Assembly (NCBI GenBank): GCA_013141385.1
Contig: JABFRB010000022.1
Location: forward strand, 92,106-156,105
DNA length: 64,000 nucleotides
Direction: 5' to 3'
From: Bacteroidales bacterium
Lineage (GTDB): Bacteria > Bacteroidota > Bacteroidia > Bacteroidales > Tenuifilaceae
Shown: positions 9,063-58,480 of the stretch, piece by piece
How positions within the stretch are numbered: position 1 is the first letter of the stretch
Layout of the letters: every line of letters starts with the position of its first letter
The notes under the pieces: model-generated
The model's database searches: none
Seen by the model: only the letters and a program-made list of their open reading frames with translations
What the model was told of the DNA's origin: nothing
Position numbers and translations under genes: made by a program

Positions 9063-10868
9063 ATGAACCTAATAGAGAAAATTATTGCCAATCATAGCAA
9101 CAAGAAAATTGTTTGCGCCGACGAAATCGTCGATATTCTAATTGATACCCGTGCAGCTCGTGACTTTGGCGGAGCAAACGTGGTTAAAAATCTTGTAAGC
9201 AACGGTTTAACTGTTAATGATCCTGCACGTACCTTTTTTACTTTCGATTGTAATCCCACAGGATCAGATCAGAAGTATGCTGCAAACCAGCAGTACTGCC
9301 GAATGTATGCAAGGGAGAATAATATCAAAGTATTTGATATTGATGCAGGAATTGGAACCCACCTTGCCATTGATGGCGGTCTTGCTTGGCCCGGTAGTAC
9401 TTTTGTTAGTACCGATTCTCACGCCAATATTATGGGTGCAATTGGTTCCTTCGGACAGGGAATGGGTGATCAGGATATTGCTGCTGCTTGGGCAAAAGGT
9501 TCGCTTTGGTTTAAGGTACCGCAATCAGTGAAACTGGTTTTTAAAGGAAAACGTCCAGCAAATATCTCAGCAAAGGACATCACACTAAATCTTCTGAAGA
9601 TTTTTGGCGCAAATAAACTCCTCGGTTTATCTGTTGAGTTTTATGGCGAAGCCATTGATGCGCTAACTCTTGATGAACGTATCACCATTGCCTCAATGGC
9701 AACTGAAATGGGTGCTATTATCTTCCTATTTCCAGCCAGCAAAGCAATTCACGAATACTGCGAAAAGAAAGTTGGAAAAAAACTAGAGATTCTTAAAGCA
9801 GATGATGACGCTAAATACGAGGATATCAAAGAGATCGACATAAGTAGTTTTGTGCCTATGCTTGCTCGTCCCGGGAAACCTCACGATAATTCTAGCGTTG
9901 CAAATGAAAAGGGTAAAAAAATTGATTCTGCCTTTATTGGTAGCTGTACCAATGGTCGTATGGAAGATTTGAGGGAAGCTGCCAAGATCTTAAAGGGCAG
10001 AAAAGTTGCACCTGGTGTAGTTCTTAAAATCGTTCCTTCCACCGATCCTATTTGGAAACAGGCTATGGACGAAGGTTTAATCCAAATCTTCAAAGATGCT
10101 GGTGCAATGGTTTCTAATGCAGGTTGTGCAGGTTGCGCAGCAGGCCAAGTTGGTCAGAATGGACCTAAAGAGGTAACTATCAGCACAGGTAACCGTAACT
10201 TCGAAGGAAAACAAGGAAGCGGTTTTGTTTACCTAGCATCTCCAAGTATTGTGGCTGCATCTGCCGTTGCAGGTTTTATTACCACACCTGATGAGATCCC
10301 TGCAAAACCTACCGAATTTGTAAAACCAGAGGTTACAGGATTTAAACTTGGAGTTAAGAAAGAAGCACAAAAAGATAAACCACTCGTTGTTGAAGGTCGT
10401 GTTTGGGTAATTCTTAAGGATGATATCGATACCGATATGATTTTCCACAACCGCTACCTTACCATCACCGATATTAAAGAGATGGGACAATACGCTTTCG
10501 ATAACCTAAAGGGTTATGAGGATTTTGCTAAAAAGGCACAGCCAAACGATATCGTAATTACTTCCAAGAATTTTGGTGCTGGTAGTTCACGTCAGCAAGC
10601 GGTTGATTGCTTTGCTTCATTGGGTATATCTTGCATAATTGCTGAATCTTATGGTGCGATTTACGAAAGAAATGCAATTAATGCAGCTTTTCCAATTCTC
10701 ACCTACAAACCCGGCTTAATTGAGTCTATTGATATTAAGGATGGTGATAAGATTCGGGTTGATATGGCAAACGGTAAGGTAACTAATTTAAAGAATAGCA
10801 AGACTTCTGATATCAATAAGTTTACCGATGTTCAGATTGAGATATATCGTAATGGGGGATTGTTGTAG
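9063..10868 (+). CDS. Aconitase-family dehydratase, fused LeuC-like large and LeuD-like small domains (3-isopropylmalate dehydratase/homoaconitase family), paralog 1
   Basis: 601 aa; N-terminal aconitase catalytic-domain motifs (…VSTDSHANIMGAIGSFGQGMG…, CTNGRMEDL, NAGCAGCAAGQVGQ) and C-terminal swivel/LeuD-like region (GRVWVILKDDIDTDMIFHNRYL…KNFGAGSSRQ). Confidence 0.75.
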   Translation: MNLIEKIIANHSNKKIVCADEIVDILIDTRAARDFGGANVVKNLVSNGLTVNDPARTFFTFDCNPTGSDQKYAANQQYCRMYARENNIKVFDIDAGIGTHLAIDGGLAWPGSTFVSTDSHANIMGAIGSFGQGMGDQDIAAAWAKGSLWFKVPQSVKLVFKGKRPANISAKDITLNLLKIFGANKLLGLSVEFYGEAIDALTLDERITIASMATEMGAIIFLFPASKAIHEYCEKKVGKKLEILKADDDAKYEDIKEIDISSFVPMLARPGKPHDNSSVANEKGKKIDSAFIGSCTNGRMEDLREAAKILKGRKVAPGVVLKIVPSTDPIWKQAMDEGLIQIFKDAGAMVSNAGCAGCAAGQVGQNGPKEVTISTGNRNFEGKQGSGFVYLASPSIVAASAVAGFITTPDEIPAKPTEFVKPEVTGFKLGVKKEAQKDKPLVVEGRVWVILKDDIDTDMIFHNRYLTITDIKEMGQYAFDNLKGYEDFAKKAQPNDIVITSKNFGAGSSRQQAVDCFASLGISCIIAESYGAIYERNAINAAFPILTYKPGLIESIDIKDGDKIRVDMANGKVTNLKNSKTSDINKFTDVQIEIYRNGGLL

Positions 10869-36739: not shown

Positions 36740-36811
36740 CTACGCTTGTGAATTATTGATAATTGGGAATCAATCGCCAAATCTATTATCCCATGTTATA
36801 ATTTACAATAG

Positions 36812-36905
36812 TTCGGTACTTTTTTTGGTGTATTTTGGTGATTTCGTGATTTCGTGGCTATTATATTGCCACCAATACACGAAAACACAAAATATCACAA
36901 AAACA
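36812..36905. repeat. Diverged relative of the 134-bp palindromic element
   Basis: Starts CAATAGTTCGGTAC like copies 1 and 2, contains a long imperfect palindrome (GGTGTATTTTGGTGATTTCGTGATTTCGTGGC / GCCACCAATACACGAAAACACAAAATATCAC); lies ~75-170 bp upstream of the minus-strand start at 36739. Confidence 0.4.
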
Positions 36906-37015
36906 ATATGTTACAAATCAATAATAATGCTTTATTGAACTATTGAATTTATATAAGTACAAAATAATTCGTATTGCTATCCTTTCCTCAATAACTTTGT
37001 TACGAGTTGAGATTT

Positions 37016-37615
37016 TTATTTTTGAATTCCTATTTCTTTTATTACTAATTTATAATTCTCAGCTATTTGCAAGCTTATCCATCCGTAAGTTGTGTCCTGT
37101 AATTGGATCATCCGAAAACCCATGTATAGATCTTCTGCATCCCAAAAATTACTGTTTATTCCAATATTATCTGGATCATAGCTACTTAGGTATGTTTGAA
37201 GTGATGTAGTAATCCAAATATGTTTATTATCAATTGTATCATTTAGATGTTTTGGCGACATAAATATTTCAATCTTTTTATCTCTAGAAATGCATTCAAT
37301 TTTGCATCCTTCGGTGGGGGTAACATAACCGATAGGATGACCCATTCCATAAAATGAATAGAAGTCTAAATCTTTACTCCCATTAAAATCAGCATCAATT
37401 AGTAGTGTTCCAGAATAACCTGTTGATGGTATTCCATTAACATCATTATTTGCCAACGTTATATGTAAATCAGGTTCATAATCTTTAACTAACATGGTAT
37501 TATCTTTCTGACCTGCAAGAATAAAACTATTCCTGTGATCCTCCTCGTTTTTTTCGCAACCTGCCAAAGTAATAGCGAAAAGTATTAATAATCCAAGATG
37601 TAATATATTTTTCAT
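37016..37615 (-). CDS. Hypothetical lipoprotein
   Basis: 199 aa; lipobox LAGC after signal peptide MKNILHLGLLILFAITLAGC. Confidence 0.4.
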   Translation of the reverse strand: MKNILHLGLLILFAITLAGCEKNEEDHRNSFILAGQKDNTMLVKDYEPDLHITLANNDVNGIPSTGYSGTLLIDADFNGSKDLDFYSFYGMGHPIGYVTPTEGCKIECISRDKKIEIFMSPKHLNDTIDNKHIWITTSLQTYLSSYDPDNIGINSNFWDAEDLYMGFRMIQLQDTTYGWISLQIAENYKLVIKEIGIQK

Positions 37616-37770
37616 TCTATTCAGTATAAAGTTTTGTTTTGCAGCAAATTAACATATTAAAAAATGATTGTATTTTGAGATATAAAACATCATTCTATCC
37701 TTCGTTATAAAGCTACTTAAAAGCGATGTACTTACCAAACACTCATCATCTCATACTTTTATGGACACTA

Positions 37771-37854
37771 GTGAAAAATGAAAAGATTTTGGAGTTTGGG
37801 TAAACGATAAGGCTATCGCAAAGTGCGATTATTGAGATGCAATGGTATTTTATT
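37771..37854. repeat. Solo copy (A) of the ~84-bp cassette-terminal element containing the ATCGCAAAGTGCGAT palindrome
   Basis: GTGAAAAATGAAAAGATTTTGGAGTTTGGGTAAACGATAAGGCTATCGCAAAGTGCGATTATTGAGATGCAATGGTATTTTATT; the same element recurs at 37968-38050 and 39231-39312. Confidence 0.55.
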
Positions 37855-37910
37855 TCAGTGCAATTTAGGATTGTTGTTTAGTAATGGGGCTTGATTCATC
37901 AAAGGGGAAA

Positions 37911-37973
37911 GGGAAAAGGGAAAAATGAAAAGGGAAAAGGGAAAAATGGAAAGGGAAAAGGGAAAAATGGAAA
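37911..37973. repeat. Purine-rich minisatellite, 3 x 21 bp (GGGAAAAGGGAAAAATGRAAA)
   Basis: Three exact or near-exact tandem units read directly. Confidence 0.7.
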
Positions 37974-38106
37974 GTGATAAGGTTTTGGAGTTAGGATGCA
38001 CAATAAGGCTATCGCAAAGTGCGATTATTGAGATGCAATGGTATTTTATTTGAGCATGTTTTTACCTTTTATCAAGTTTAATGATTCTGATTTTATCTTA
38101 GGATTT

Positions 38107-38457
38107 TTAGCTCCTTAAAATCTTATCCATTGCTTTACCCTTTGCCAATTCATCAACTAGTTTATCTAGGTAACGAATTTTTTGCATAAGCTCGTCTTCA
38201 ATTTCTTCAACTCGATAACCACAAATTACGCCCATGATTTTTGAAACATTTGGATTAATCTGCGGTGCTTGGGCGAAGAAGGTTTCAAAATCATTATTCT
38301 TATCGATTTGTTGTTGCAATGTTTGTTGATCATATCCTGTTAGCCAAAAAATAATGGCATCTACCTCAGCTTTTGTGCGTCCCTTTTTCTCCGTTTTTTG
38401 TATATACAACGGGTATACACTTGCAAAAGAGGTTTTAAATATTTTTGTATTATCCAT
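38107..38457 (-). CDS. Small conserved hypothetical protein (cassette gene 3, copy 1)
   Basis: 116 aa, [47 protein letters not shown]…; conserved-looking, function unknown (DUF-type). Confidence 0.4.
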
Positions 38458-38609
38458 TTTGCTTGTTATTAATTATCAAGGTTAATTTCCTTTAGTCAGC
38501 AACTAGTTAACTTTGTTGTTCTTGCGTTCCTAATGAGTCAACAGCCCAAATACAACCGAGCGTTTTGTGCGAGTTCGGCGGAGCCAATAAATACGCTGTC
38601 AGTGCTAGG

Positions 38610-38918
38610 CTATATTTTCTTGATTTTCTCTGGGTTCTGTCTACAATCAAAGACTGATGCAATTGTGATAAGATTTTCCTTCTTCCAATAAATGATTTTG
38701 TAATTGCTTTCAACCAGATATCTAAATTCTTCTGGGTAGTTGCTTAAAAGTTCTTCTTTCGGGCCTGCTGATGGATTGCTTTCTAGGATGGTAACTTTGT
38801 CAAGAATTCTATTTATTATCTTTCTTGCAATTCGTGAACTAACCTCTAATGAATAGTAATCAAATATGTCTTTGAGTTGCCTTTCAGACAGTTCAGACCA
38901 TTCAATCCTTATTTCCAT
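38610..38918 (-). CDS. Type II toxin, ParE/RelE family (copy 1)
   Basis: 102 aa; …YKIIYWKKENLITIASVFDCRQNP… typical RelE/ParE C-terminal region; 10-bp overlap with upstream antitoxin ORF. Confidence 0.7.
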   Translation of the reverse strand: MEIRIEWSELSERQLKDIFDYYSLEVSSRIARKIINRILDKVTILESNPSAGPKEELLSNYPEEFRYLVESNYKIIYWKKENLITIASVFDCRQNPEKIKKI

Positions 38919-39151
38919 GTCTTCACCTTCTTCTTAAGTTCTTGGTGAGTGATAACTCGACCAGTATCGCAATCACATTTCGCTTGGTCAATCATTTCAT
39001 GGAATTCGTTCAACGACATGGGTTTTAAGTTTTTTTCATGAGAAACTTTCTTTTCCTGCTTAATGAAAGATTCAATTTTAGTGATTAGACTTTCGTCACT
39101 AATACGTAGGAATTCTTCAATTAGAATCAGTTTTCTCGCTTGAATATTCAT
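38909..39151 (-). CDS. Putative antitoxin / addiction-module component (copy 1)
   Basis: 80-aa ORF directly upstream of and overlapping the toxin gene; small, charged, helical. Confidence 0.5.
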   Translation of the reverse strand: MNIQARKLILIEEFLRISDESLITKIESFIKQEKKVSHEKNLKPMSLNEFHEMIDQAKCDCDTGRVITHQELKKKVKTWK

Positions 39152-39167
39152 GTCCTTAGTCTTTCTG

Positions 39168-39175
39168 CAAATATA
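39168..39175 (-). promoter_or_regulatory. Bacteroidetes-type -7 promoter box TATATTTG (minus strand) for cassette copy 1
   Basis: RC of CAAATATA; matches the TAnnTTTG consensus, 17 bp upstream of the antitoxin ATG. Confidence 0.35.
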
Positions 39176-39230
39176 AATGTTTTCGAAGGGAAAAGCATCG
39201 TCTTGTCGTTTTTTTAGCTTGACGCTAACG

Positions 39231-39312
39231 GGAAAGTGAAAAGGTTTTGGAGTTGGGGTGCACGATAAGGCTATCGCAAAGTGCGATTATTGAGATGCAA
39301 TGGTGTTTTATT
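39231..39312. repeat. Cassette-terminal element copy C (ATCGCAAAGTGCGAT palindrome at 39273-39287)
   Basis: Same ~82-bp sequence as 37771-37854 and 37968-38050. Confidence 0.55.
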
Positions 39313-39360
39313 GGAGCGCATTTTCACTTTTTTATCAAGTTTAATGATTCTGATTTTATC

Positions 39361-39720
39361 TTAGGATTTTTGGCTCCTTAATATCTTATCCATTGCTTTT
39401 CCCTTAGCCAATTCATCAACTAGCTTATCTAAGTAACGAATTTTTTGCATAAGCTCGTCTTCAATTTCTTCAACTCGATAACCACAAATTACGCCCATGA
39501 TTTTTGAAACATTTGGATTAATCTGCGGTGCTTGGGCGAAGAAGGTTTCAAAATCATTATTCTTATCGATTTGTTGTTGCAATGTTTGTTGATCATATCC
39601 TGTTAGCCAAAAAATAATGGCATCTACCTCAGCTTTTGTGCGTCCCTTTTTCTCCGTTTTTTGTATATACAACGGGTATACACTTGCAAAAGAGGTTTTA
39701 AATATTTTTGTATTATCCAT
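39361..39720 (-). CDS. Small conserved hypothetical protein (cassette gene 3, copy 2)
   Basis: 119 aa, identical to copy 1 except a 3-aa longer C-terminus. Confidence 0.4.
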
Positions 39721-39872
39721 TTTGCTTGTTATTAATTATCAAGGTTAATTTCCTTTAGTCAGCAACTAGTTAACTTTGTTGTTCTTGCGTTCCTAATGAG
39801 TCAACAGCCCAAATACAACCGAGCGTTTTGTGCGAGTTCGGCGGAGCCAATAAATACGCTGTCAGTGCTAGG

Positions 39873-40181
39873 CTATATTTTCTTGATTTTCTCTGGGTTC
39901 TGTCTACAATCAAAGACTGATGCAATTGTGATAAGATTTTCCTTCTTCCAATAAATGATTTTGTAATTGCTTTCAACCAGATATCTAAATTCTTCTGGGT
40001 AGTTGCTTAAAAGTTCTTCTTTCGGGCCTGCTGATGGATTGCTTTCTAGGATGGTAACTTTGTCAAGAATTCTATTTATTATCTTTCTTGCAATTCGTGA
40101 ACTAACCTCTAATGAATAGTAATCAAATATGTCTTTGAGTTGCCTTTCAGACAGTTCAGACCATTCAATCCTTATTTCCAT
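39873..40181 (-). CDS. Type II toxin, ParE/RelE family (copy 2)
   Basis: Identical protein to 38610-38918. Confidence 0.7.
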   Translation of the reverse strand: MEIRIEWSELSERQLKDIFDYYSLEVSSRIARKIINRILDKVTILESNPSAGPKEELLSNYPEEFRYLVESNYKIIYWKKENLITIASVFDCRQNPEKIKKI

Positions 40182-40414
40182 GTCTTCACCTTCTTCTTAA
40201 GTTCTTGGTGAGTGATAACTCGACCAGTATCGCAATCACATTTCGCTTGGTCAATCATTTCATGGAATTCGTTCAACGACATGGGTTTTAAGTTTTTTTC
40301 ATGAGAAACTTTCTTTTCCTGCTTAATGAAAGATTCAATTTTAGTGATTAGACTTTCGTCACTAATACGTAGGAATTCTTCAATTAGAATCAGTTTTCTC
40401 GCTTGAATATTCAT
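40172..40414 (-). CDS. Putative antitoxin (copy 2)
   Basis: Identical protein to 38909-39151. Confidence 0.5.
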   Translation of the reverse strand: MNIQARKLILIEEFLRISDESLITKIESFIKQEKKVSHEKNLKPMSLNEFHEMIDQAKCDCDTGRVITHQELKKKVKTWK

Positions 40415-40430
40415 GTCCTTAGTCTTTCTG

Positions 40431-40438
40431 CAAATATA
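40431..40438 (-). promoter_or_regulatory. -7 promoter box TATATTTG for cassette copy 2
   Basis: Same sequence and spacing as in copy 1. Confidence 0.35.
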
Positions 40439-40589
40439 AATGTTTTCGAAGGGAAAAGCATCGTCTTGTCGTTTTTTTAGCTTGACGCTAACGGGGGTTC
40501 AAAATCCTAATATTAGCGTTGAGTCGGATTTTTAATCCAGCTCAACGTTTGGATTTTATATGTCCGAGTTGACGAGGATAGATGGGGCA

Positions 40590-43109
40590 TTATATCATTT
40601 TTAATATATCTGATGCAACCTCATTAATATGAATAAATGTGACTCTATCACCAATTTTCAAGGATAAATCAAAAGACTCAGAAAAATATTCATTTCTTGT
40701 TACTAAATCTGAAATAATTACTAAATCTTTGTCAACATCTGTAACAATTCCCTCAAGTCTTAATTCTTTGTTTAAAAAATCAAGTTGATTGCGTGAAATT
40801 GTTGTCACTTGAGATATCCACTCCCCAGTTTCCCTATCTCGACTAGTACAGATTTTCCTAGTATCCTTTAAATAATGAGTTTGAACATCCATTAATATAC
40901 AAAAAGGATATGTAAATTCATATGTTGAACCTCTACTTCCTGCACCAACTTCTGCTAATTTTACAATATTAAACTCTTCGTTCTTAGCATGAAGAGAAGA
41001 AACTAAACTAGTTAGATTTGGTAATCTAAATCGGTAAGTTATTTGTTTTTTACATGCTTTTGCTAATGAATTAGCTATTTCTCTTTCCGACAAATCATAA
41101 CTTGACAAAAGATTTTGTGAAAAATCTTTTATGATACAAATAATATCACTCTTATTATATAATCTATTTTTTGAATAACTTGTCGAAGTAATACACTTAT
41201 CCATTAGACTTGCAAATCTACGAGAGGAACCATCTGAAGCATAAATCAGCTGTTCCAAAGCGTCATGTTCTAAACCTCCATTTATTTCAATTATATCAGA
41301 AATTTTAGTTGGTTCAATCTTGTTAATTGATACTACTTTTAAGTAATTATTAACTAACTCAATACAATACTTTCGATAAGCTTCATAATCATCACTAGTT
41401 TTTACATTGTAATCAAGGTTAACAATAGAGCCAAACCTATCCTCATTTAGAATATCTGAAATATCATTAGGATAAACAGCTATTCTAGTAAAATAAGGAC
41501 CACTATTTCTTATAGAATTCATCCAACGCAAAAAACCACTTTCAGAATCATGAAAGAATTCTCTAGGAAAAACAGGAGCAACTTCATCAATTAATAATAA
41601 AACATGAGTAAAATAGTTAGACATATTTTCCTTCAGTGCTACACCAAGCTTCCAGATAATACTTCCTTCCTGATTTGATAAGACTTTCAACTTTTGTTTG
41701 ACACGAAATAAGGCATTTCTAAATTCTGCAGATTTTAATTCTTTATCTTTTATTTCTAAAGCAGATAAGGTCGATTCAAAAATTAATTTTTCAGCAGATT
41801 CAATTATTGTACTTATTGCACTTTTCCATTCAGAACTATGAATTAATGTGAAATTTACAAGTACGGGAAATGATTCACTAACTTTTTTGTCTTTTACATT
41901 GATATCAAATGTATAATTGCCAAATACATTTAAATATCTTAATAGCATTGTTTTGCCAGAACCTCTACTTCCTCTAATTATTGCATCACCTGTGGGTCTA
42001 ACCGCACCCTTATTTCTACCCTCACTAGAAACAAACAACTGAATTATTTGATTTGTTGAGATTTTTTCTGCATTATTAAAAGTAAAGGGATTTCGTTTAA
42101 TTTTGAATTTTTCAATTAAAGTCAAATCCTCCATACTATTAGAAGAAAATGTATCAAAATTAATGATGTAAGGCAAATCAAATACGCTTGGATTTAATTC
42201 AAGTGAATTATCCTCAGTCCAAGCTCCTAAACCCAGTTTGCCACGTTTATTAGGGCTATAAGCTCTCCAATATGATTCAAGTTTTTTATTATGCGAATCC
42301 AAAATGTGAATAGTATATTGATTTTGAATTCCATCAGTCCGTTGACTTCTATCAACTCCAGCAGACCCTGAACCGGAATATATAATAACTTTACCATCAT
42401 GTTTAACCTCTTGACACCTATTTTCATGGATATGACCAGTAAATAATATGTTATAACCATTTTCAATTAAAATAGTCTCAATCTCGTAAGAATTATTAAT
42501 AATTGAATTTGATTCCTTTCCATTTTGCTCTATCCTATGATGACATATACATATTTTTGTATAATCATCATTTCCATTGCCAAGTTTCCTAACAATACTA
42601 TTAACAAGCTTCTCTGAATCTACATATCCACAATGATTTAAATGGTCTTCCTTTTCACAACTGTTTATGAACAAAAACTCAATTCCTAATCTATGATCAA
42701 AGAACCGATTATAAAACTCGGGACTTATCCTAGAGTATTTATTACATGTATTATATGCAAACTTATTATAATTACTATACTTCAGATTAACATCGCCAAC
42801 ATCTGATGATATCTCTGCTAATTTCCAATTAATATCATGATTCCCTGGTACACTTAAAACAGAGTCTTTGTCAATAGATATTTTTCGTGCTAAATTATTG
42901 ATAACATTCTCAGCGTCTAAAAATTCATCTGCATGCGCAGTTTCAGTTATATCACCTGTTAACAAAATATAAATTGGCAAAAACTGAAATTTATCCGCCA
43001 TAAAATTGATATCATTTGCAATCGATTCATAAATTTTAGAAGGATTTCCAAAACGATGTTTTGCTCCAAATTGCAAATCTGACAATTGAATAATTCCGTA
43101 TCGTATCAT
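40590..43109 (-). CDS. Calcineurin-like metallophosphoesterase (Mre11/SbcD-like) fused to P-loop NTPase with C-terminal unknown domain; candidate defense protein
   Basis: 839 aa; N-terminal motifs SDLQFG, LTGDITE, VPGNHD, ICICHH, FTGHIHEN (phosphoesterase motifs I-V); Walker A IIRGSRGSGKTMLL and Walker B HVLLLIDEV in the middle third; ~300-aa C-terminal region without recognisable motif; AT-rich codon usage. Confidence 0.6.
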   Translation of the reverse strand: MIRYGIIQLSDLQFGAKHRFGNPSKIYESIANDINFMADKFQFLPIYILLTGDITETAHADEFLDAENVINNLARKISIDKDSVLSVPGNHDINWKLAEISSDVGDVNLKYSNYNKFAYNTCNKYSRISPEFYNRFFDHRLGIEFLFINSCEKEDHLNHCGYVDSEKLVNSIVRKLGNGNDDYTKICICHHRIEQNGKESNSIINNSYEIETILIENGYNILFTGHIHENRCQEVKHDGKVIIYSGSGSAGVDRSQRTDGIQNQYTIHILDSHNKKLESYWRAYSPNKRGKLGLGAWTEDNSLELNPSVFDLPYIINFDTFSSNSMEDLTLIEKFKIKRNPFTFNNAEKISTNQIIQLFVSSEGRNKGAVRPTGDAIIRGSRGSGKTMLLRYLNVFGNYTFDINVKDKKVSESFPVLVNFTLIHSSEWKSAISTIIESAEKLIFESTLSALEIKDKELKSAEFRNALFRVKQKLKVLSNQEGSIIWKLGVALKENMSNYFTHVLLLIDEVAPVFPREFFHDSESGFLRWMNSIRNSGPYFTRIAVYPNDISDILNEDRFGSIVNLDYNVKTSDDYEAYRKYCIELVNNYLKVVSINKIEPTKISDIIEINGGLEHDALEQLIYASDGSSRRFASLMDKCITSTSYSKNRLYNKSDIICIIKDFSQNLLSSYDLSEREIANSLAKACKKQITYRFRLPNLTSLVSSLHAKNEEFNIVKLAEVGAGSRGSTYEFTYPFCILMDVQTHYLKDTRKICTSRDRETGEWISQVTTISRNQLDFLNKELRLEGIVTDVDKDLVIISDLVTRNEYFSESFDLSLKIGDRVTFIHINEVASDILKMI

Positions 43110-43650
43110 ATTTTACTTTTTATCAAGGTAGTGTTTTATTGCCTTGCGCATAACTTAATAGGGTTTTATCCCCTGTTTTCCATAACAAAATTAGCAAAAA
43201 ACATGAATGCCCAAAATTGGAAAGATCCAATAATTGAAATCCTTATAATCAAATATAACTCTTTTTATAAATTATCATTGGGCTATACTTTAGAATTATA
43301 GAACAACCCATTGTCCTATTCTATAATTCACTTTTATATTATTTCTCCAGTTTGGATTGGGAATTATTGTAGCATCCAATTTTCTTGCTTCTCTGTGTCG
43401 TTATTTTAAATATTTACATATATTTACGAAACTAATCTTCAAGTATGAATCGTTGGCAGCTTAAATTTAAGATTAAAATTAACCGCACCTGCCTCTGCGT
43501 TCGCTAATTGGATATTATCCCAATATCCCTATTTTCAATATTTTAAATTTCATTTTTCATTATTGATGCCCGCTGTTAAGCATTTTAACAGTTTGGTTTT
43601 ATACGATAATTCAATTATTACATTCTATAATCATCTAAAATAAACATAAT

Positions 43651-45189
43651 ATGACATTAGTTATCAATGGAGCAAACCTCAAGATTGAGGATGTTGTAAG
43701 AGTTGCTCGTTTCAACGAGAAGGTGGAGTTACACCCCGAGGCAGTTGCGAAAATTAATAAGTGCCGTGCAATGCTCGATAAAAAGATTGCTGCACACGAG
43801 ATTATGTACGGTATTAATACTGGTATTGGTGAATTCTCCGAGATTGTTTTAAATGATGATCAGGTTCAGGATTTTCAAAAATATCTGGTTTATAACCATG
43901 CTGCAGGTATTGGAAATGCAATGCCATTGGATCATGTAAGGGGAGCAATGTTAGGTAGAATCAATGTTCATGCTCATGGGAACTCAGGTTGCCGCATTGA
44001 AATCACCCAAACATTGGTTGAAATGCTTAATAAAGGGGTTACCCCTTATGTTTGCGAAAAGGGTTCAGTGGGTGCTTGTGGCGATTTAGCTCCAATGTCG
44101 CAAATTGCGTTACTTTTAATGGGCGAAGGTCATGCTTTCTATAAAGGGGAAAAATTGGAGGGTAAAGAGGCTATGAAGCGCGCTGGCATAACTGTTCCAG
44201 GGCTTCATGCAAGGGATGGTCTTGCTGCTATTAATGGCTCAAATGTACTTACAGCCATGAGCGCATTGATGGTTTACGATACAAATCGATTACTTAAACA
44301 TGCCGAGATTGCTTGCGCTATGTCGTTAGAGGCATTAAAGGCTAACCTAAAACCCTATCATCCAAAAATTCTTGAGGTAAGAGGATTCCCAGGTGGTATG
44401 CGTAGCGCAGCTGCAATCCGTAAGGTTACAAAGGGTGGCGATTTATCGGAAGGTAAGCTAAAAACCAAGGTACAGGATGCGTATTCAATGCGTTCGACCC
44501 CACAGGTTATTGGTGCTGCTCATGATGCGCTGAAATATGCCCGTGAACAGGTGGAAACCGAATTGAATGGTGTTGGCGATAACCCTATTTTCTTTGCTGA
44601 TGAGAATCTTGCTCTATCAGGAGCAAATTTCCAAGGTTCACCAATCTCATTACCAATGGACTTAGTTGGTGCTGCTGTTACAATGGTTTGCGTTCTATCT
44701 GAGCGTAGGATGAACCGCCTGAATAATCCAGCATTAAGCGTTGGCTTACCTCCATTCCTAACCAAAGATCCTGGAATGTTCTCGGGTTTAATGCTAAGCC
44801 AATATACTGCTGATATGCAGATTGTAGAGCAAAGAATTCTTTGTATGCCAGCTTCAATCCAATCAATCCCTGCCGCTGCGGATCAGGAAGATTTTGTATC
44901 CATGGGTATGAATACTGCGCTTAAGAATTTCCAAATTCTTGATAACGCTTATGGTATTCTTGGTATTGAGTTTATGGCTGCTGCACAGGCACTCGATCTT
45001 CGTGGATTAATTGAAACACCTTACAAATACGGTATCGGAACTCAAAAGGCAAAGGATACTATTCGTAAACATGTGAAATTCCTCGATATAGACCGCCCTC
45101 TATACCCAGATCATAATGCGATGAAAGAGCTTGTAAAAACAGGTGAAATCCTAGAGGAAGTTGAAAAGGAGATTGGAAGTTTGGAATAA
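43651..45189 (+). CDS. Aromatic amino acid ammonia-lyase family (HAL/PAL/TAL-like) with Ala-Cys-Gly at the MIO-forming position
   Basis: 512 aa; GSVGACGDLAPMSQ aligns to the HAL GSVGASGDLAPL MIO loop; additional family motifs NTGIGEFS, YSMRSTPQVIGA, GNFQGSP. Confidence 0.8.
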   Translation: MTLVINGANLKIEDVVRVARFNEKVELHPEAVAKINKCRAMLDKKIAAHEIMYGINTGIGEFSEIVLNDDQVQDFQKYLVYNHAAGIGNAMPLDHVRGAMLGRINVHAHGNSGCRIEITQTLVEMLNKGVTPYVCEKGSVGACGDLAPMSQIALLLMGEGHAFYKGEKLEGKEAMKRAGITVPGLHARDGLAAINGSNVLTAMSALMVYDTNRLLKHAEIACAMSLEALKANLKPYHPKILEVRGFPGGMRSAAAIRKVTKGGDLSEGKLKTKVQDAYSMRSTPQVIGAAHDALKYAREQVETELNGVGDNPIFFADENLALSGANFQGSPISLPMDLVGAAVTMVCVLSERRMNRLNNPALSVGLPPFLTKDPGMFSGLMLSQYTADMQIVEQRILCMPASIQSIPAAADQEDFVSMGMNTALKNFQILDNAYGILGIEFMAAAQALDLRGLIETPYKYGIGTQKAKDTIRKHVKFLDIDRPLYPDHNAMKELVKTGEILEEVEKEIGSLE

Positions 45190-45451
45190 AACTTTTAATC
45201 AATAATTAACGTGTTTTCGATATAATTTTTAACACAGAGATTTTAAGTTTTGGATCTAACAAAATGGTTGTTTTAATAAGATACAGACTTGCCATAATAA
45301 TGTTTATTGATATTGAGAAGCACTGCTTGTCCCGATGAAATCGGGAGAGAACGCTGAGGTTTGTTGATTCTGCATAAATGCAAAATCGACAATGCACTTT
45401 AAACCCTCATTTTTCAATGTAACTCCTTGTTTCGAACTAACGTTAATTAAT

Positions 45452-56611: not shown

Positions 56612-56830
56612 GATAGAGAGGGGGCCGGGGGGTGAGTCTCTTTTATCCAAACTTACTCTCCCCCAGCCCCTCTCTCTGAGCAAGAGAGAGGGGAGTGAAG
56701 TAACCAGCAGCATTCTAACTCACCATTTTCCTTCATTTCTATATTCGATAGTTTGTAAATGAAAAAAACATTCGCTCAAGAAATGCGTAATCATAACTTC
56801 AAGAATAGAGAGGGGTCGAGGGGTGAGTTT
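56612..56830. repeat. Composite MITE-like repeat copy (inverted terminal segments AGAGAGGGGGYCGGGGGGTGAGT / ACTCACCCC…CCCCTCTCT)
   Basis: Contains both the GAGAGGGGGCCGGGGGGTGAGTC arm (56613-56640) and the forward hairpin arm (56660-56700) plus the shared tail …CAGCAGCATTCTAACTCACCATTTTCCTTCATTTCTATATTCGATAG and a second AATAGAGAGGGGTCGAGGGGTGAGT arm at 56806-56830. Confidence 0.5.
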
Positions 56831-56875
56831 TTTTTATTTATATTTTCATTATCTTGCATTTTAAATGTCTTAATT

Positions 56876-57241
56876 ATGTTTATACCTTCTACCATTGTTC
56901 AAATAGCAAGAGAATTAAGAAGAAATCAAACTCCCGAAGAGGAAATACTATGGCAAGCCTTACGAAATCGTAAGTTGGGTGGTTTTAAATTCCTTCGACA
57001 ACACCCTATAGTTTATGACAAAAATAACCCGCTCCCTGGTTTTATTGTTGCCGATTTCTATTGTGCCGAAAAACAGCTAATCCTTGAACTGGATGGTAAA
57101 ATTCACGATTACCAAAAAGATCATGATCAAAAAAGGGATTTCATAATGGAAACTAAAGGCTATTGGGTAATTCGTATCAAGAATGAGGAGGTGGACAATT
57201 TAGATCAATTATTAGAAAAGATTCGTAATGTGTTAGAATAG
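56876..57241 (+). CDS. DUF559 (Vsr/restriction-endonuclease-like fold) domain protein
   Basis: Start moved to internal Met (MFIPSTIVQIARELRRNQTPEEEILWQ…) because the long-ORF 5' extension runs through a repeat arm; …FIVADFYCAEKQLILELDG…WVIRIKNEEV typical of DUF559. Confidence 0.55.
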   Translation: MFIPSTIVQIARELRRNQTPEEEILWQALRNRKLGGFKFLRQHPIVYDKNNPLPGFIVADFYCAEKQLILELDGKIHDYQKDHDQKRDFIMETKGYWVIRIKNEEVDNLDQLLEKIRNVLE

Positions 57242-57254
57242 TGGTTTTCGGTTA

Positions 57255-57321
57255 ACTTACTCACCCCCAACCTCTCTCTCTGGGCAAGAGAGAGGGGAGT
57301 GAAGTAACCAGCAGCATTCTA
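57255..57321. repeat. MITE/REP-like repeat copy interrupted by the IS630 insertion
   Basis: TTACTCACCCCCAACCTCTCTCTCTGGGCAAGAGAGAGGGGAGTGAAGTAACCAGCAGCATTCTA| ; the tail of the element (ACTCACCATTTTTCTTCATTTCTATATTCGATA) resumes at 58483 after the IS. Confidence 0.6.
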
Positions 57322-58480
57322 ATACCATCTTGAAATATAAAATAGTCCAATATATTTAATGTCGTTTTTTTTTGTATATTTGGACTATAATATAATTCAA
57401 ATATGTCAGCACCCAAAGTCGTTCATATTGGCGAAAGCCTTCAATACCTGAGGGGTCTTTTAAAAAAGACCACCCCCTTTATGGCTCCGCGGGTTAGGAT
57501 GCTTATCGAGATGAAAAAGGCGCAGGATGTGGGTGTGTCTAAGCGGGCACTGGCTGAGCTGGTGGGCGTAAATCACAACAGCATCCAAGCATGGCGGAAT
57601 CTATACCTGTCAGGAGGGGTAGCGCTTCTGATGACTCACAAGAAAACGGGCTATAAGCCGACCAAGATTTCAAAGCAGGAGCATGCAGCCCTTGATCGCA
57701 AGCTCAGAGACCCACAGAGCGGCATTCGGGGGTACACGGAGCTGATGCGCTGGCTTGAGCAGGAGTTTCATCGGAGCGTTAGCTACAATACCCTCTACAA
57801 ATACTGCGTACGCGAGTTCGGCTCATCCGTCAAGGTTGCTCGCAAGAGCCATATCAGAAAGGATGCTGCGGCTGTTGAGGTTTTTAAAAAAACTTCGCTA
57901 AAACCTGCCGCCATGCGATTGCCAGCAAAGGGGGGCGGTTCGAGAGGGTGAACCTTTTCTTCCAGGATGAAAGTCGCTTTGGCCTATTCACCAGGAATGG
58001 TAAGGCGTTGACGGCCAAAGGCGTCAAGCCCATCTGCCCCTTTCATCAGGTTTTTAAGTCCCTCTACCTATACGGCGCATTCTCGCCCGTAAATGGGGAC
58101 TACTTTATGCTGGAGCTACCATCGTGCAACGCCGATCTTTTTCAGGTATTCCTTGATGAGTTCTCACAGCAGGACCCCGATGAACTCAAGCTGATGGTCT
58201 TGGATAATGGCGCCTTTCACAAAGCCATGAAGCTTAAATCCCGGATAACATCATTCCTATTTTCCTCCCTCCATACTCCCCGGAGCTGAATCCAGCCGAA
58301 AAGGTATGGGCTAAGCTTAAGCGTGACTTTACCAACCGGCTGTTCAAAACCCTTGATGAGCTGGATGCTTACCTCTGCAACCTTTCATGCTCGATAACAA
58401 AAAAAGAGGTCATGAGCATAGGAGCGTACAGTTACATTATTTCAAACCCATTTTGGACTATTATATATTTCAATTTGGTA
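57322..58480 (+). mobile_element. IS630/Tc1-mariner-family insertion sequence (~1.16 kb) with ~28-bp TIRs and TA target-site duplication
   Basis: Left end TACCATCTTGAAATATAAAATAGTCCAA vs RC of right end TACCAAATTGAAATATATAATAGTCCAA; TA at 57320-57321 and 58481-58482; internal second copy of the TIR core (TATATTTGGACTA, 57378-57390); GC clearly higher than surroundings. Confidence 0.7.
57403..58470 (+). pseudogene. IS630-family DDE transposase, disrupted by two -1 frameshifts
   Basis: Frame 1 (57403-57951) HTH region; frame shift at or after a G6 run (57930-57935); frame 2 (57948-58289) contains …FFQDESRFGL…; second shift at CTTAAATCCC (~58235) where adding one A restores …KLKIPDNIIPIFLPPYSPELNPAEKVW…. 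Confidence 0.65.

Follow-up and report, generated by a model that had tools for sequence, protein, structure and literature searches.

What kind of DNA separates the genes of an M28 peptidase and an ammonia-lyase in an uncultured Bacteroidales lineage (Tenuifilaceae), and does it act in defence? The question arises in a stretch of 64,000 nucleotides (contig JABFRB010000022.1 of assembly GCA_013141385.1, positions 92,106 to 156,105 of the forward strand), hereafter the window, in which an earlier note had described an AT-rich defence or addiction island at 37600-43650. Our analysis assigns a probability of roughly 0.7 to the reading that the DNA from M28 to the lyase is a small chromosomal variable region with exchanged cargo, namely a toxin-antitoxin (TA) pair and a candidate single-gene defence system. 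The latter is the gene at 40590-43109 (minus strand), defined by its open reading frame (ORF) and by Pfam and encoding a protein of 839 amino acids (aa) with a Metallophos and a P-loop domain. Judged from its sequence, this AT-rich gene appears to have spread horizontally; it is the main cargo of the region.

Scans of GTDB genomes and of metagenomes with the M28 peptidase returned only 2 + 2 loci, which shows that the lineage is poorly sampled. In the locus L007, from another Bacteroidales metagenome-assembled genome (MAG), the flanking genes for M28, a Zn-ribbon protein, AlkZ and the lyase are 84-93% identical to those of the window at the nucleotide level, which indicates a different species. 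The two sequences are collinear from 27.3 kb of the window through M28, and again over 43237-45205, which comprises the lyase gene and the 414 bp upstream. In the interval from M28 to the lyase, L007 encodes a 399-aa membrane protein and a 230-aa lipoprotein, both unrelated to the cargo of the window, as well as one DUF2200 gene and one copy of an intergenic element of ~100 nt followed by a C/T minisatellite. Comparison of the sites found no 839-aa gene, ParE toxin pair, tandem duplication or 199-aa lipoprotein in L007. Positions 38098-38597 (DUF2200 and 140 bp upstream) are 87% identical in L007, the adjoining 38598-39230 are unmatched, and the gap between the element region and M28 measures ~70 bp in L007 vs ~950 bp in the window. 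Because L007 lacks the cargo of the window but keeps DUF2200 and the element, the site reads as replaced cargo around a small resident core made of these two. Alignment to relatives had been named beforehand as the test of the variable-region interpretation, and its outcome supports that interpretation: the flanks are conserved and the content between them is absent or replaced, rather than conserved in synteny and sequence. All components listed in the earlier note are present, namely the lipoprotein, the ~100-nt element, the minisatellite, the twofold TA unit and the 839-aa gene. Its description of these as exclusively accessory holds for the cargo that is absent from L007 and fails for DUF2200 and the element, which are kept in L007, DUF2200 also in the more distant locus L021.

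The same alignment shifts the borders of the region. Positions 43237-43700 match L007 6700-6252 at 83% identity and no match is found to the left of 43237, which places the right breakpoint at about this position; the variable DNA, as estimated from the alignment, comprises about 36.8-37.7 kb plus 38.6-43.24 kb. The borders of 37600 and 43650 proposed earlier thus have to be replaced by ~36.8 kb and 43237, and 43237-43650 is conserved DNA upstream of the lyase. Likewise, the region does not lie between two core protease genes: its left flank is the M28 peptidase gene (36739-35087, minus strand), its conserved right flank is the ammonia-lyase gene, and in L007 the M16 protease does not adjoin the lyase. 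Both non-coding brackets, 37616-37968 and 43110-43650, could be confirmed. The 71-aa ORF at 43086-43301, suspected before to be spurious, most likely is so, because it has no family match and straddles the breakpoint at 43237.

More distant M28 orthologues, with 71-79% protein identity, were found in L008, L009, L010, L021 and L022, and different genes lie upstream of each of them. L010 carries a DUF6364/PIN_3 TA pair and an AraC regulator, L008 a HigB/HigA pair and L009 a transglutaminase-like lipoprotein gene. In L021 the upstream DNA contains DUF2200, and a few kb further SoFic (PADLOC, 1e-112) and PDC-S01 (3e-165) are encoded, while L022 has PHO4/PhoU genes and no island. Three TA families and two PADLOC-recognised systems at an orthologous site are suggestive of a hot spot for cargo.

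The G+C content (GC) of 37600-43650 is 0.319 vs 0.3595 for the window, which makes it the lowest of 1159 sliding 6-kb windows and bears out, at this scale, the claim that it is the most AT-rich part; on a 1-kb scale, 24-25, 28-29 and 48-49 kb are equally AT-rich. The low GC comes mainly from the 839-aa gene, and in addition from the lipoprotein gene and the spacers, while both TA units have an ordinary GC of 0.35. The GC of the 839-aa gene is 0.294, its GC at third codon positions (GC3) of 0.18 is the lowest of 46 genes, and its tetranucleotide distance of 0.309 vs 0.211 ± 0.037 makes it an outlier within the window. Every supported ORF of at least 50 aa in 37016-43109 lies on the minus strand, as had been stated; the uniform strand is not distinctive, because the minus-strand run reaches over 12846-43109 with one exception at 28790-29152. 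The hallmarks of a classical genomic island or integrative element (integrase, att site or tRNA, flanking repeats) are missing: a tRNA scan found none in the window, Pfam found no recombinase or transposase domain among the ORFs of the region, and no flanking direct repeats or terminal repeats were found at it. Scans for sigma-70 promoters and terminators remained at background level, such models being ill-suited to Bacteroidota. Rfam gave no relevant match at the gathering threshold over the whole window, and at E ≤ 1 over 37600-40620 it gave only two chance mir-310 matches inside ParE.

What sets the region apart is the architecture of the 839-aa protein. Sequence and structure model predict three parts, a Calcineurin-CE-type metallophosphoesterase (MPE, residues 1 to ~300), an ORC/Cdc6-like AAA+ ATPase with a winged helix (~337-745) and a CSD/OB-like barrel (784-839). 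Pfam places Metallophos at aa 6-229, and aa 340-399 match positions 1-58 of the ORC-CDC6-like family. The assignment to the PF00149 superfamily is supported by a score above the gathering threshold, by the fold and by the metal-binding motifs I-V, and that to PF24389 (ORC-CDC6-like AAA+) by its gathering score, by the AAA+/winged-helix fold and by Walker A and B. The metal ligands D11, G52-D53, G89-N90-H91-D92, H190-H191 and G225-H226-x-H228 are invariant in the MPE, and so are Walker A GxxGxGKT (G380..G385-K386-T387), Walker B D508-E509 and R630-R631 in the ATPase. When 1.84 billion representatives were searched exhaustively by phmmer, residues 330-839 matched only 80 proteins. These belong to the protein's own family and to a standalone family of ~560-600 aa with PF24389, several members of which also have a Pfam CSD domain at the C-terminus. 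Residues 337-839 align end to end with the standalone family, including its CSD segment (profile-profile comparison, E 5e-82). No direct match to CSD (PF00313) was obtained with the 839-aa protein itself; because of the profile alignment to a CSD-bearing family and of five strands at 784-837 in the structure model, we read its C-terminus as a probable diverged CSD/OB barrel. The standalone family is represented by P0081-P0116 and by L019 2096-3886, where the neighbourhood proved uninformative; in a relative, P0120, the C-terminus matches the PADLOC candidate PDC-M36A instead. As the ATPase-CSD part also occurs on its own, it could serve as a reusable module for sensing, combined with other effectors.

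The product is 100% identical to a database entry from a MAG annotated as 'metallophosphoesterase [Bacteroidales bacterium]', and literature searches yielded no description of its architecture. On the minus strand, the gene is preceded by a non-conserved leader of 127 bp (43110-43236) with no match in L007, and is followed by a spacer of 94 bp (40496-40589), in which a hairpin directly downstream of the gene (predicted fold -21.3 kcal/mol, z -3.3) is a probable terminator.

The MPE connects the protein to experimentally described immunity. The single-gene system DS-8, a metallophosphatase fused to a NACHT domain, protects E. coli from phage and requires both domains, and DS-9, a metallophosphatase protein with a HAD partner, also protects E. 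coli (PMC13092281). Residues 5-260 of the 839-aa protein match positions 195-483 of the NCBIfam model 'DS9_1 anti-phage phosphoesterase' (E 1.3e-18). The MPE is also 26% identical (E 1e-27) to that of the MPE-NACHT protein P0072, which itself matches both the DS9_1 and the DS8 models, and a tblastn search of plasmids located the same MPE on NACHT and SAV_2336-N proteins of Nostoc. The protein thus has the N-terminal metallophosphatase homologous to the effector of DS-8 and DS-9 and lacks the other parts of both systems. No NACHT-type NTPase follows the metallophosphatase, and the DS8 model (NF053861, equivalog cut-off 790 bits) gave no match to it at E ≤ 0.01, while it does match P0071-P0073. 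There is no PUA-like sensor in front of the MPE, which begins at residue 3-6, and no HAD phosphatase gene lies beside the gene, whose neighbours are antitoxin/ParE and lyase, or beside the homologues examined. PADLOC v2 has no model for this family and found no complete known system in the region.

The distribution of the family is patchy and crosses phyla. About 70 clusters among 5.8 billion proteins match the 839-aa protein, most of them singletons; the homologue of Bacteroides thetaiotaomicron is 74% identical and that of the planctomycete Ca. Scalindua japonica 67%. The homologues are always solo genes, and their neighbours change between contexts. In Ca. Scalindua (L003 4859-10520) the homologue lies directly downstream of a type I hsdR on the same strand, with GmrSD, HEPN/MNT and AAA_15/DUF4276 nearby; the same position behind a type I hsdR, again on the same strand, is occupied by a 43% identical homologue in an unrelated genome of 9.1 Mb (L014 3579-9526), where HipA_C lies nearby and a serine recombinase follows. 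This adjacency in two unrelated genomes could indicate functional coupling or mere clustering in defence islands, and the repeated place might reflect coupling to restriction products. A further homologue is located amid PIN TAs, SLATT, QueC+TIR and AbiJ/Abi_C, another adjoins a PDDEXK_9 ATPase and a tyrosine integrase, and that of B. thetaiotaomicron adjoins DUF3871 and a resolvase. In IMG/VR viral contigs no relatives were found; phage and plasmid records yielded no full-length relatives, only matches to the MPE domain, and PHROGs gave no informative match.

The second part of the cargo is a duplicated unit of 1263 bp on the minus strand. Unit 1 (37969-39231, with an element copy at 37969-38070) encodes DUF2200 (38107-38457, 116 aa, Pfam E 6e-55), a ParE-family toxin (38610-38918, 102 aa, PF05016 ParE_toxin E 1.6e-10) and a putative antitoxin (38909-39151, 80 aa), an upstream ORF that overlaps the toxin by 10 nt. 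Unit 2 (39232-40495, with an element copy at 39231-39332) encodes DUF2200 (39361-39720, 119 aa, identified by ORF and Pfam), the ParE toxin (39873-40181) and the putative antitoxin (40172-40414). The toxin scores 41.9 bits against a PF05016 cut-off of 23 and, together with the overlapping 80-aa ORF upstream, forms a predicted type II TA pair of the ParE/RelE kind. A TAnnTTTG box lies ~20 nt upstream of the antitoxin ATG; TAnnTTTG is the Bacteroidetes -7 consensus. A PDB sequence search gave no match for the toxin, and an exact-sequence look-up no record; for DUF2200 the PDB search found only the uncharacterised 3c9p. DUF2200 was rejected as a third TA component: it is present without ParE in L007 and L021. 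A stretch of 1063 bp (38170-39232 vs 39433-40495, offset 1263) is 100% identical between the units, 6 mismatches lie in 38067-38170, and the element parts are 89% identical. All unit-to-unit differences lie in the DUF2200 3' end and the adjoining element, and the two DUF2200 copies differ in their 3' ends (116 vs 119 aa, copy 2 having SQKS in addition). The element shows 93% identity to L007 in copy 2 and 82% in copy 1. This unequal divergence of the unit ends suggests, on the basis of the alignments, that gene conversion, or recombination with a different allele, took place later.

The intergenic element itself occurs three times in the window, in the two units and as a solo copy on the minus strand (37773-37874) found by repeat comparison; its 37-nt core is present three times as an exact match vs 0 expected. 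It is single-copy in L007 (~9690-9830), and none was found in the other 20 fetched loci. The solo copy is in ancestral position, because the same AGTGTCCATAAAAGTATGA sequence comes after the element in L007. The element has no Rfam match, and folding consistently predicts only a hairpin of 6 bp, a conserved palindrome (ATCGCA-N3-TGCGAT), with weak and inconsistent z-scores of -0.6 to -2.9, for which reason we do not claim a structured RNA; the element may serve as a promoter or as a region bound by protein upstream of M28. Next to it, at 37901-37982, lies a G/A-rich minisatellite with a period of 7 or 21; its homologue in L007 is a C/T-rich tract that lies upstream of M28. The minisatellite also contains the left junction of the duplication, which reads 'cggg|aaag'.

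Towards M28, the region contains the gene of a 199-aa lipoprotein (37016-37615, minus strand), an ORF whose signal peptide carries an LAGC lipobox. This lipoprotein is cargo specific to the window, and searches of Pfam, PADLOC, NCBIfam and PHROG gave no match. Between its 3' end and the M28 start, BLAST and sequence comparison revealed a hairpin repeat of ~120 nt, present there as a diverged copy (36806-36920, fold -31.9 kcal/mol, z -2.6). The repeat is dispersed: two other copies in intergenic spacers of the window, 15812-15930 and 30809-30927, are 96% identical, and the repeat is also found at L007 4534-4613 and at L020 75-164, where it lies upstream of M28. Precisely where the window has its 30.8-kb copy, L007 contains an additional ~1.5 kb of DNA, and in the closest M28 relative the Logan contig breaks at a repeat located upstream of M28. 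Such copies may indicate sites of recombination or insertion.

At the right edge, a TAnnTTTG box (43250-43257, minus strand; ~6680-6690 in L007) is found just inside the border of the conserved block; in either genome it is oriented towards the cargo, as if varying cargo sat behind one resident promoter. The k=31 Logan contig L001, which contains the 839-aa gene, stops at 43202, 35 nt before the breakpoint; this could reflect a co-existing strain with other cargo in the same sample or a mere single-nucleotide polymorphism. The lyase gene 'HutH' (43651-45189; cf. L007 174-6301) scores above the NCBIfam cut-off of the histidine ammonia-lyase subfamily (535 vs 524 bits) and below that of the hutH equivalog (501 vs 539 bits), and may have a role in secondary metabolism. 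Synteny breaks beyond the lyase too: where the window has the M16 protease gene, L007 encodes a type III polyketide synthase, a methyltransferase and an FAD monooxygenase. A second foreign-looking patch, the strongest tetranucleotide outlier of the window, lies at 56759-57951 and consists of a DUF559/Vsr-like endonuclease-domain gene (56759-57241) and the helix-turn-helix part of an IS630-type transposase (57403-57951), the latter with a GC of 0.525 and a GC3 of 0.59.

Could these be ordinary lineage-specific genes, AT-rich only by low expression, with the 839-aa protein acting as a housekeeping nucleotide or cyclic-nucleotide phosphodiesterase, or as a repair enzyme of the SbcCD/Mre11-Rad50 kind with a fused ATPase? 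We regard this as unlikely. The gene is absent from L007, and ~70 clusters worldwide with identities of 67-74% across phyla do not make a housekeeping pattern. Its ATPase resembles ORC/Cdc6/TnsC and not the coiled-coil ABC ATPases of the SMC/Rad50 type; on ATPase type and distribution we reject a role like that of SbcCD. Moreover, validated defence systems provide the effector family to which the MPE is closest, and the gene recurs beside restriction-modification, Abi and TA genes. Less probable still is a decayed fragment of a mobile element in which an ORC/Cdc6/TnsC-like ATPase served replication or target selection, the ParE pair served maintenance and the recombinase has been lost. The TnsC-like fold matches and the recombinases near three homologues would agree with such an origin, yet the region has neither recombinase, transposase and tRNA nor terminal repeats, IMG/VR gave no match, and plasmid and phage records gave no full-length match. 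The neighbours of the gene differ in every context, which implies that it travels as a solo gene, and a fused nucleotide phosphoesterase effector has no obvious role in transposition.

That the duplication or even the whole island is an artefact of metagenome assembly, joining strain variants, seems very improbable. The source is indeed a MAG, and units that are identical over 1063 bp while their element ends differ by 6-11% could be two alleles of one locus. However, the junction at 39225-39240, from antitoxin upstream DNA to element, shares no long overlap with the alternative junction, and a de Bruijn assembler could therefore not invent it without spanning reads. In addition, contig L001 from an independent Logan assembly (SRR11487826) is an exact match to 40466-43202, and its end at 40466 is the stop that is expected of a k=31 unitig if 40495 is a true repeat boundary and the path branches there. 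Because the contig ends where this boundary predicts, both duplication junctions appear to exist in the reads, and the flanks of the island are collinear with L007. The tandem duplication is thus probably real.

The reading of the locus as a variable region with a TA pair and a candidate defence gene has to be held against a number of observations. The compositional deviation is modest (z -1.75). L007 is the one close relative that spans the whole site, which leaves the hot spot suggestive rather than proven, and loss of synteny is expected anyway at the 71-79% protein identity of the other M28 orthologues. Several recognised defence systems clustered together, as they occur in a defence island, are not found here; the region combines a single candidate defence gene with TA pairs, and integrase, tRNA and flanking repeats are missing. 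The 80-aa putative antitoxin belongs to no family recognised by Pfam, NCBIfam or a PDB sequence search. A simple old duplication does not predict 100% identity over 1063 bp together with 89-94% at one end. Regarding the 839-aa protein, motif I of the MPE is D-x-Q instead of D-x-H; PADLOC matches are partial, consisting of an N-terminal 'Effector' (6e-8) and the Walker A region; its score of 67 bits for DS9_1 is far below the cut-off of 420 bits, and it is therefore not a DS-9 member. In one lineage the homologue stands between housekeeping genes without defence neighbours. The claim of a defence or addiction island is accordingly sustained as far as variability and TA pairs are concerned, and the defence role of the 839-aa family is one that we infer from homology and neighbourhood.

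We propose that the cargo would be exchanged between related genomes by homologous recombination in the conserved flanks, which is the simplest route given that integrase, tRNA and terminal repeats are all missing. DUF2200 and the ~100-nt element would be residents of the site, and the 839-aa gene, the ParE pair and the 199-aa lipoprotein gene would have been acquired. The ParE pair would have inserted just upstream of the resident DUF2200 and would act, with its own TAnnTTTG promoter box, as an addiction module that stabilises the locus; the block of element, DUF2200, ParE and antitoxin would then have been duplicated in tandem via the junction in the G/A minisatellite. By likeness to DS-8, Avs and bNACHT, the 839-aa protein may work as sensor, switch and effector in one chain. 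Its C-terminus with winged helix and cold-shock-like barrel would sense a cue of infection (nucleic acid being most likely), after which the ORC/Cdc6-like AAA+ module would switch or oligomerise using ATP, and the Calcineurin-CE-type MPE thus released would hydrolyse nucleotides (dNDP/dNTP or a cyclic nucleotide), so that phage replication would halt in the manner of abortive infection. Tentatively, and at something short of even odds, we speculate that the protein founds an uncharacterised family of single-gene immune sensors, in which an ORC/Cdc6-like AAA+ ATPase reads a winged-helix/cold-shock nucleic-acid sensor and unleashes a Calcineurin-CE phosphoesterase.

The island itself is ordinary, as chromosomes commonly swap TA and defence cargo between conserved flanks in such islets, and its documentation as a suggested hot spot of an uncultured Bacteroidales lineage is of modest value. 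The only unusual part is the 839-aa gene. Its plan of effector, NTPase and sensor with a Calcineurin-CE effector is already known in kind, and the gene extends the theme of a metallophosphatase effector with an NTPase, as in DS-8 and DS-9/PUA-Cal-HAD, to another ATPase clade and to a probable nucleic-acid sensor. Due to the fact that the gene is compact and standalone and has intact motifs, its function is directly testable by cloning and point mutation. If active, it would provide a new sensor-effector combination in nucleotide-depletion immunity and a function for the standalone PF24389+CSD proteins.

Compared with known defence islands and hot spots, the locus shares conserved flanks with differing cargo and the recurrence of TA and defence genes at an orthologous position; it differs in its size of only ~6 kb, in the single candidate defence gene, in the lack of a recombinase and in the resident DUF2200 embedded in it. 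The TA pair resembles ParDE and RelE-ParE modules by a 102-aa toxin above the PF05016 cut-off, an upstream ORF overlapping by 10 nt and a promoter-like box of its own, whereas its antitoxin has no known family and the pair is tandemly duplicated with the neighbouring DUF2200.

Calcineurin-like phosphoesterases are among the effectors of NTPase-regulated conflict systems (PMC8195603; bioRxiv 10.1101/2022.07.19.500537). In PUA-Cal-HAD, the Calcineurin-CE domain turns dADP into dAMP and collapses the dNTP pools together with HAD; according to the authors, Calcineurin-CE invariably occupies the effector position of predicted systems against selfish elements (bioRxiv 10.64898/2026.01.15.699771). 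The MPE of the 839-aa protein aligns to the Calcineurin-CE part of DS9_1, and by analogy its likely chemistry is hydrolysis of nucleotide phosphoesters leading to nucleotide depletion. In contrast to DS-9/PUA-Cal-HAD, the 839-aa gene has neither PUA sensor nor HAD partner, and regulation would be exerted by the AAA+ ATPase here and by m6-dAMP-driven filaments there. With Avs, bNACHT and other STAND proteins, the 839-aa protein shares the tripartite logic from effector over NTPase switch to sensor, although its ATPase belongs on the ORC/Cdc6-like side and not to the NACHT/AP-ATPase clades, and its predicted sensor is a small barrel of nucleic-acid-binding type rather than TPR/LRR-like repeats. 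Swappable effectors are a further common trait: the ATPase with winged helix and CSD also exists without MPE, and the same MPE is found on NACHT and TPR-STAND proteins. Set beside DS-8, the NTPase is ORC-CDC6-like (PF24389) and not NACHT, the C-terminus consists of a winged helix and a CSD-like barrel, and DS-8 was shown to act in E. coli whereas the 839-aa protein comes from Bacteroidales and is known here from its sequence. Both are nevertheless single genes that combine an N-terminal calcineurin-like MPE of the same effector family, a P-loop NTPase of the STAND/Cdc6/Orc type and a C-terminal extension, and in both the catalytic motifs of the two domains are intact.

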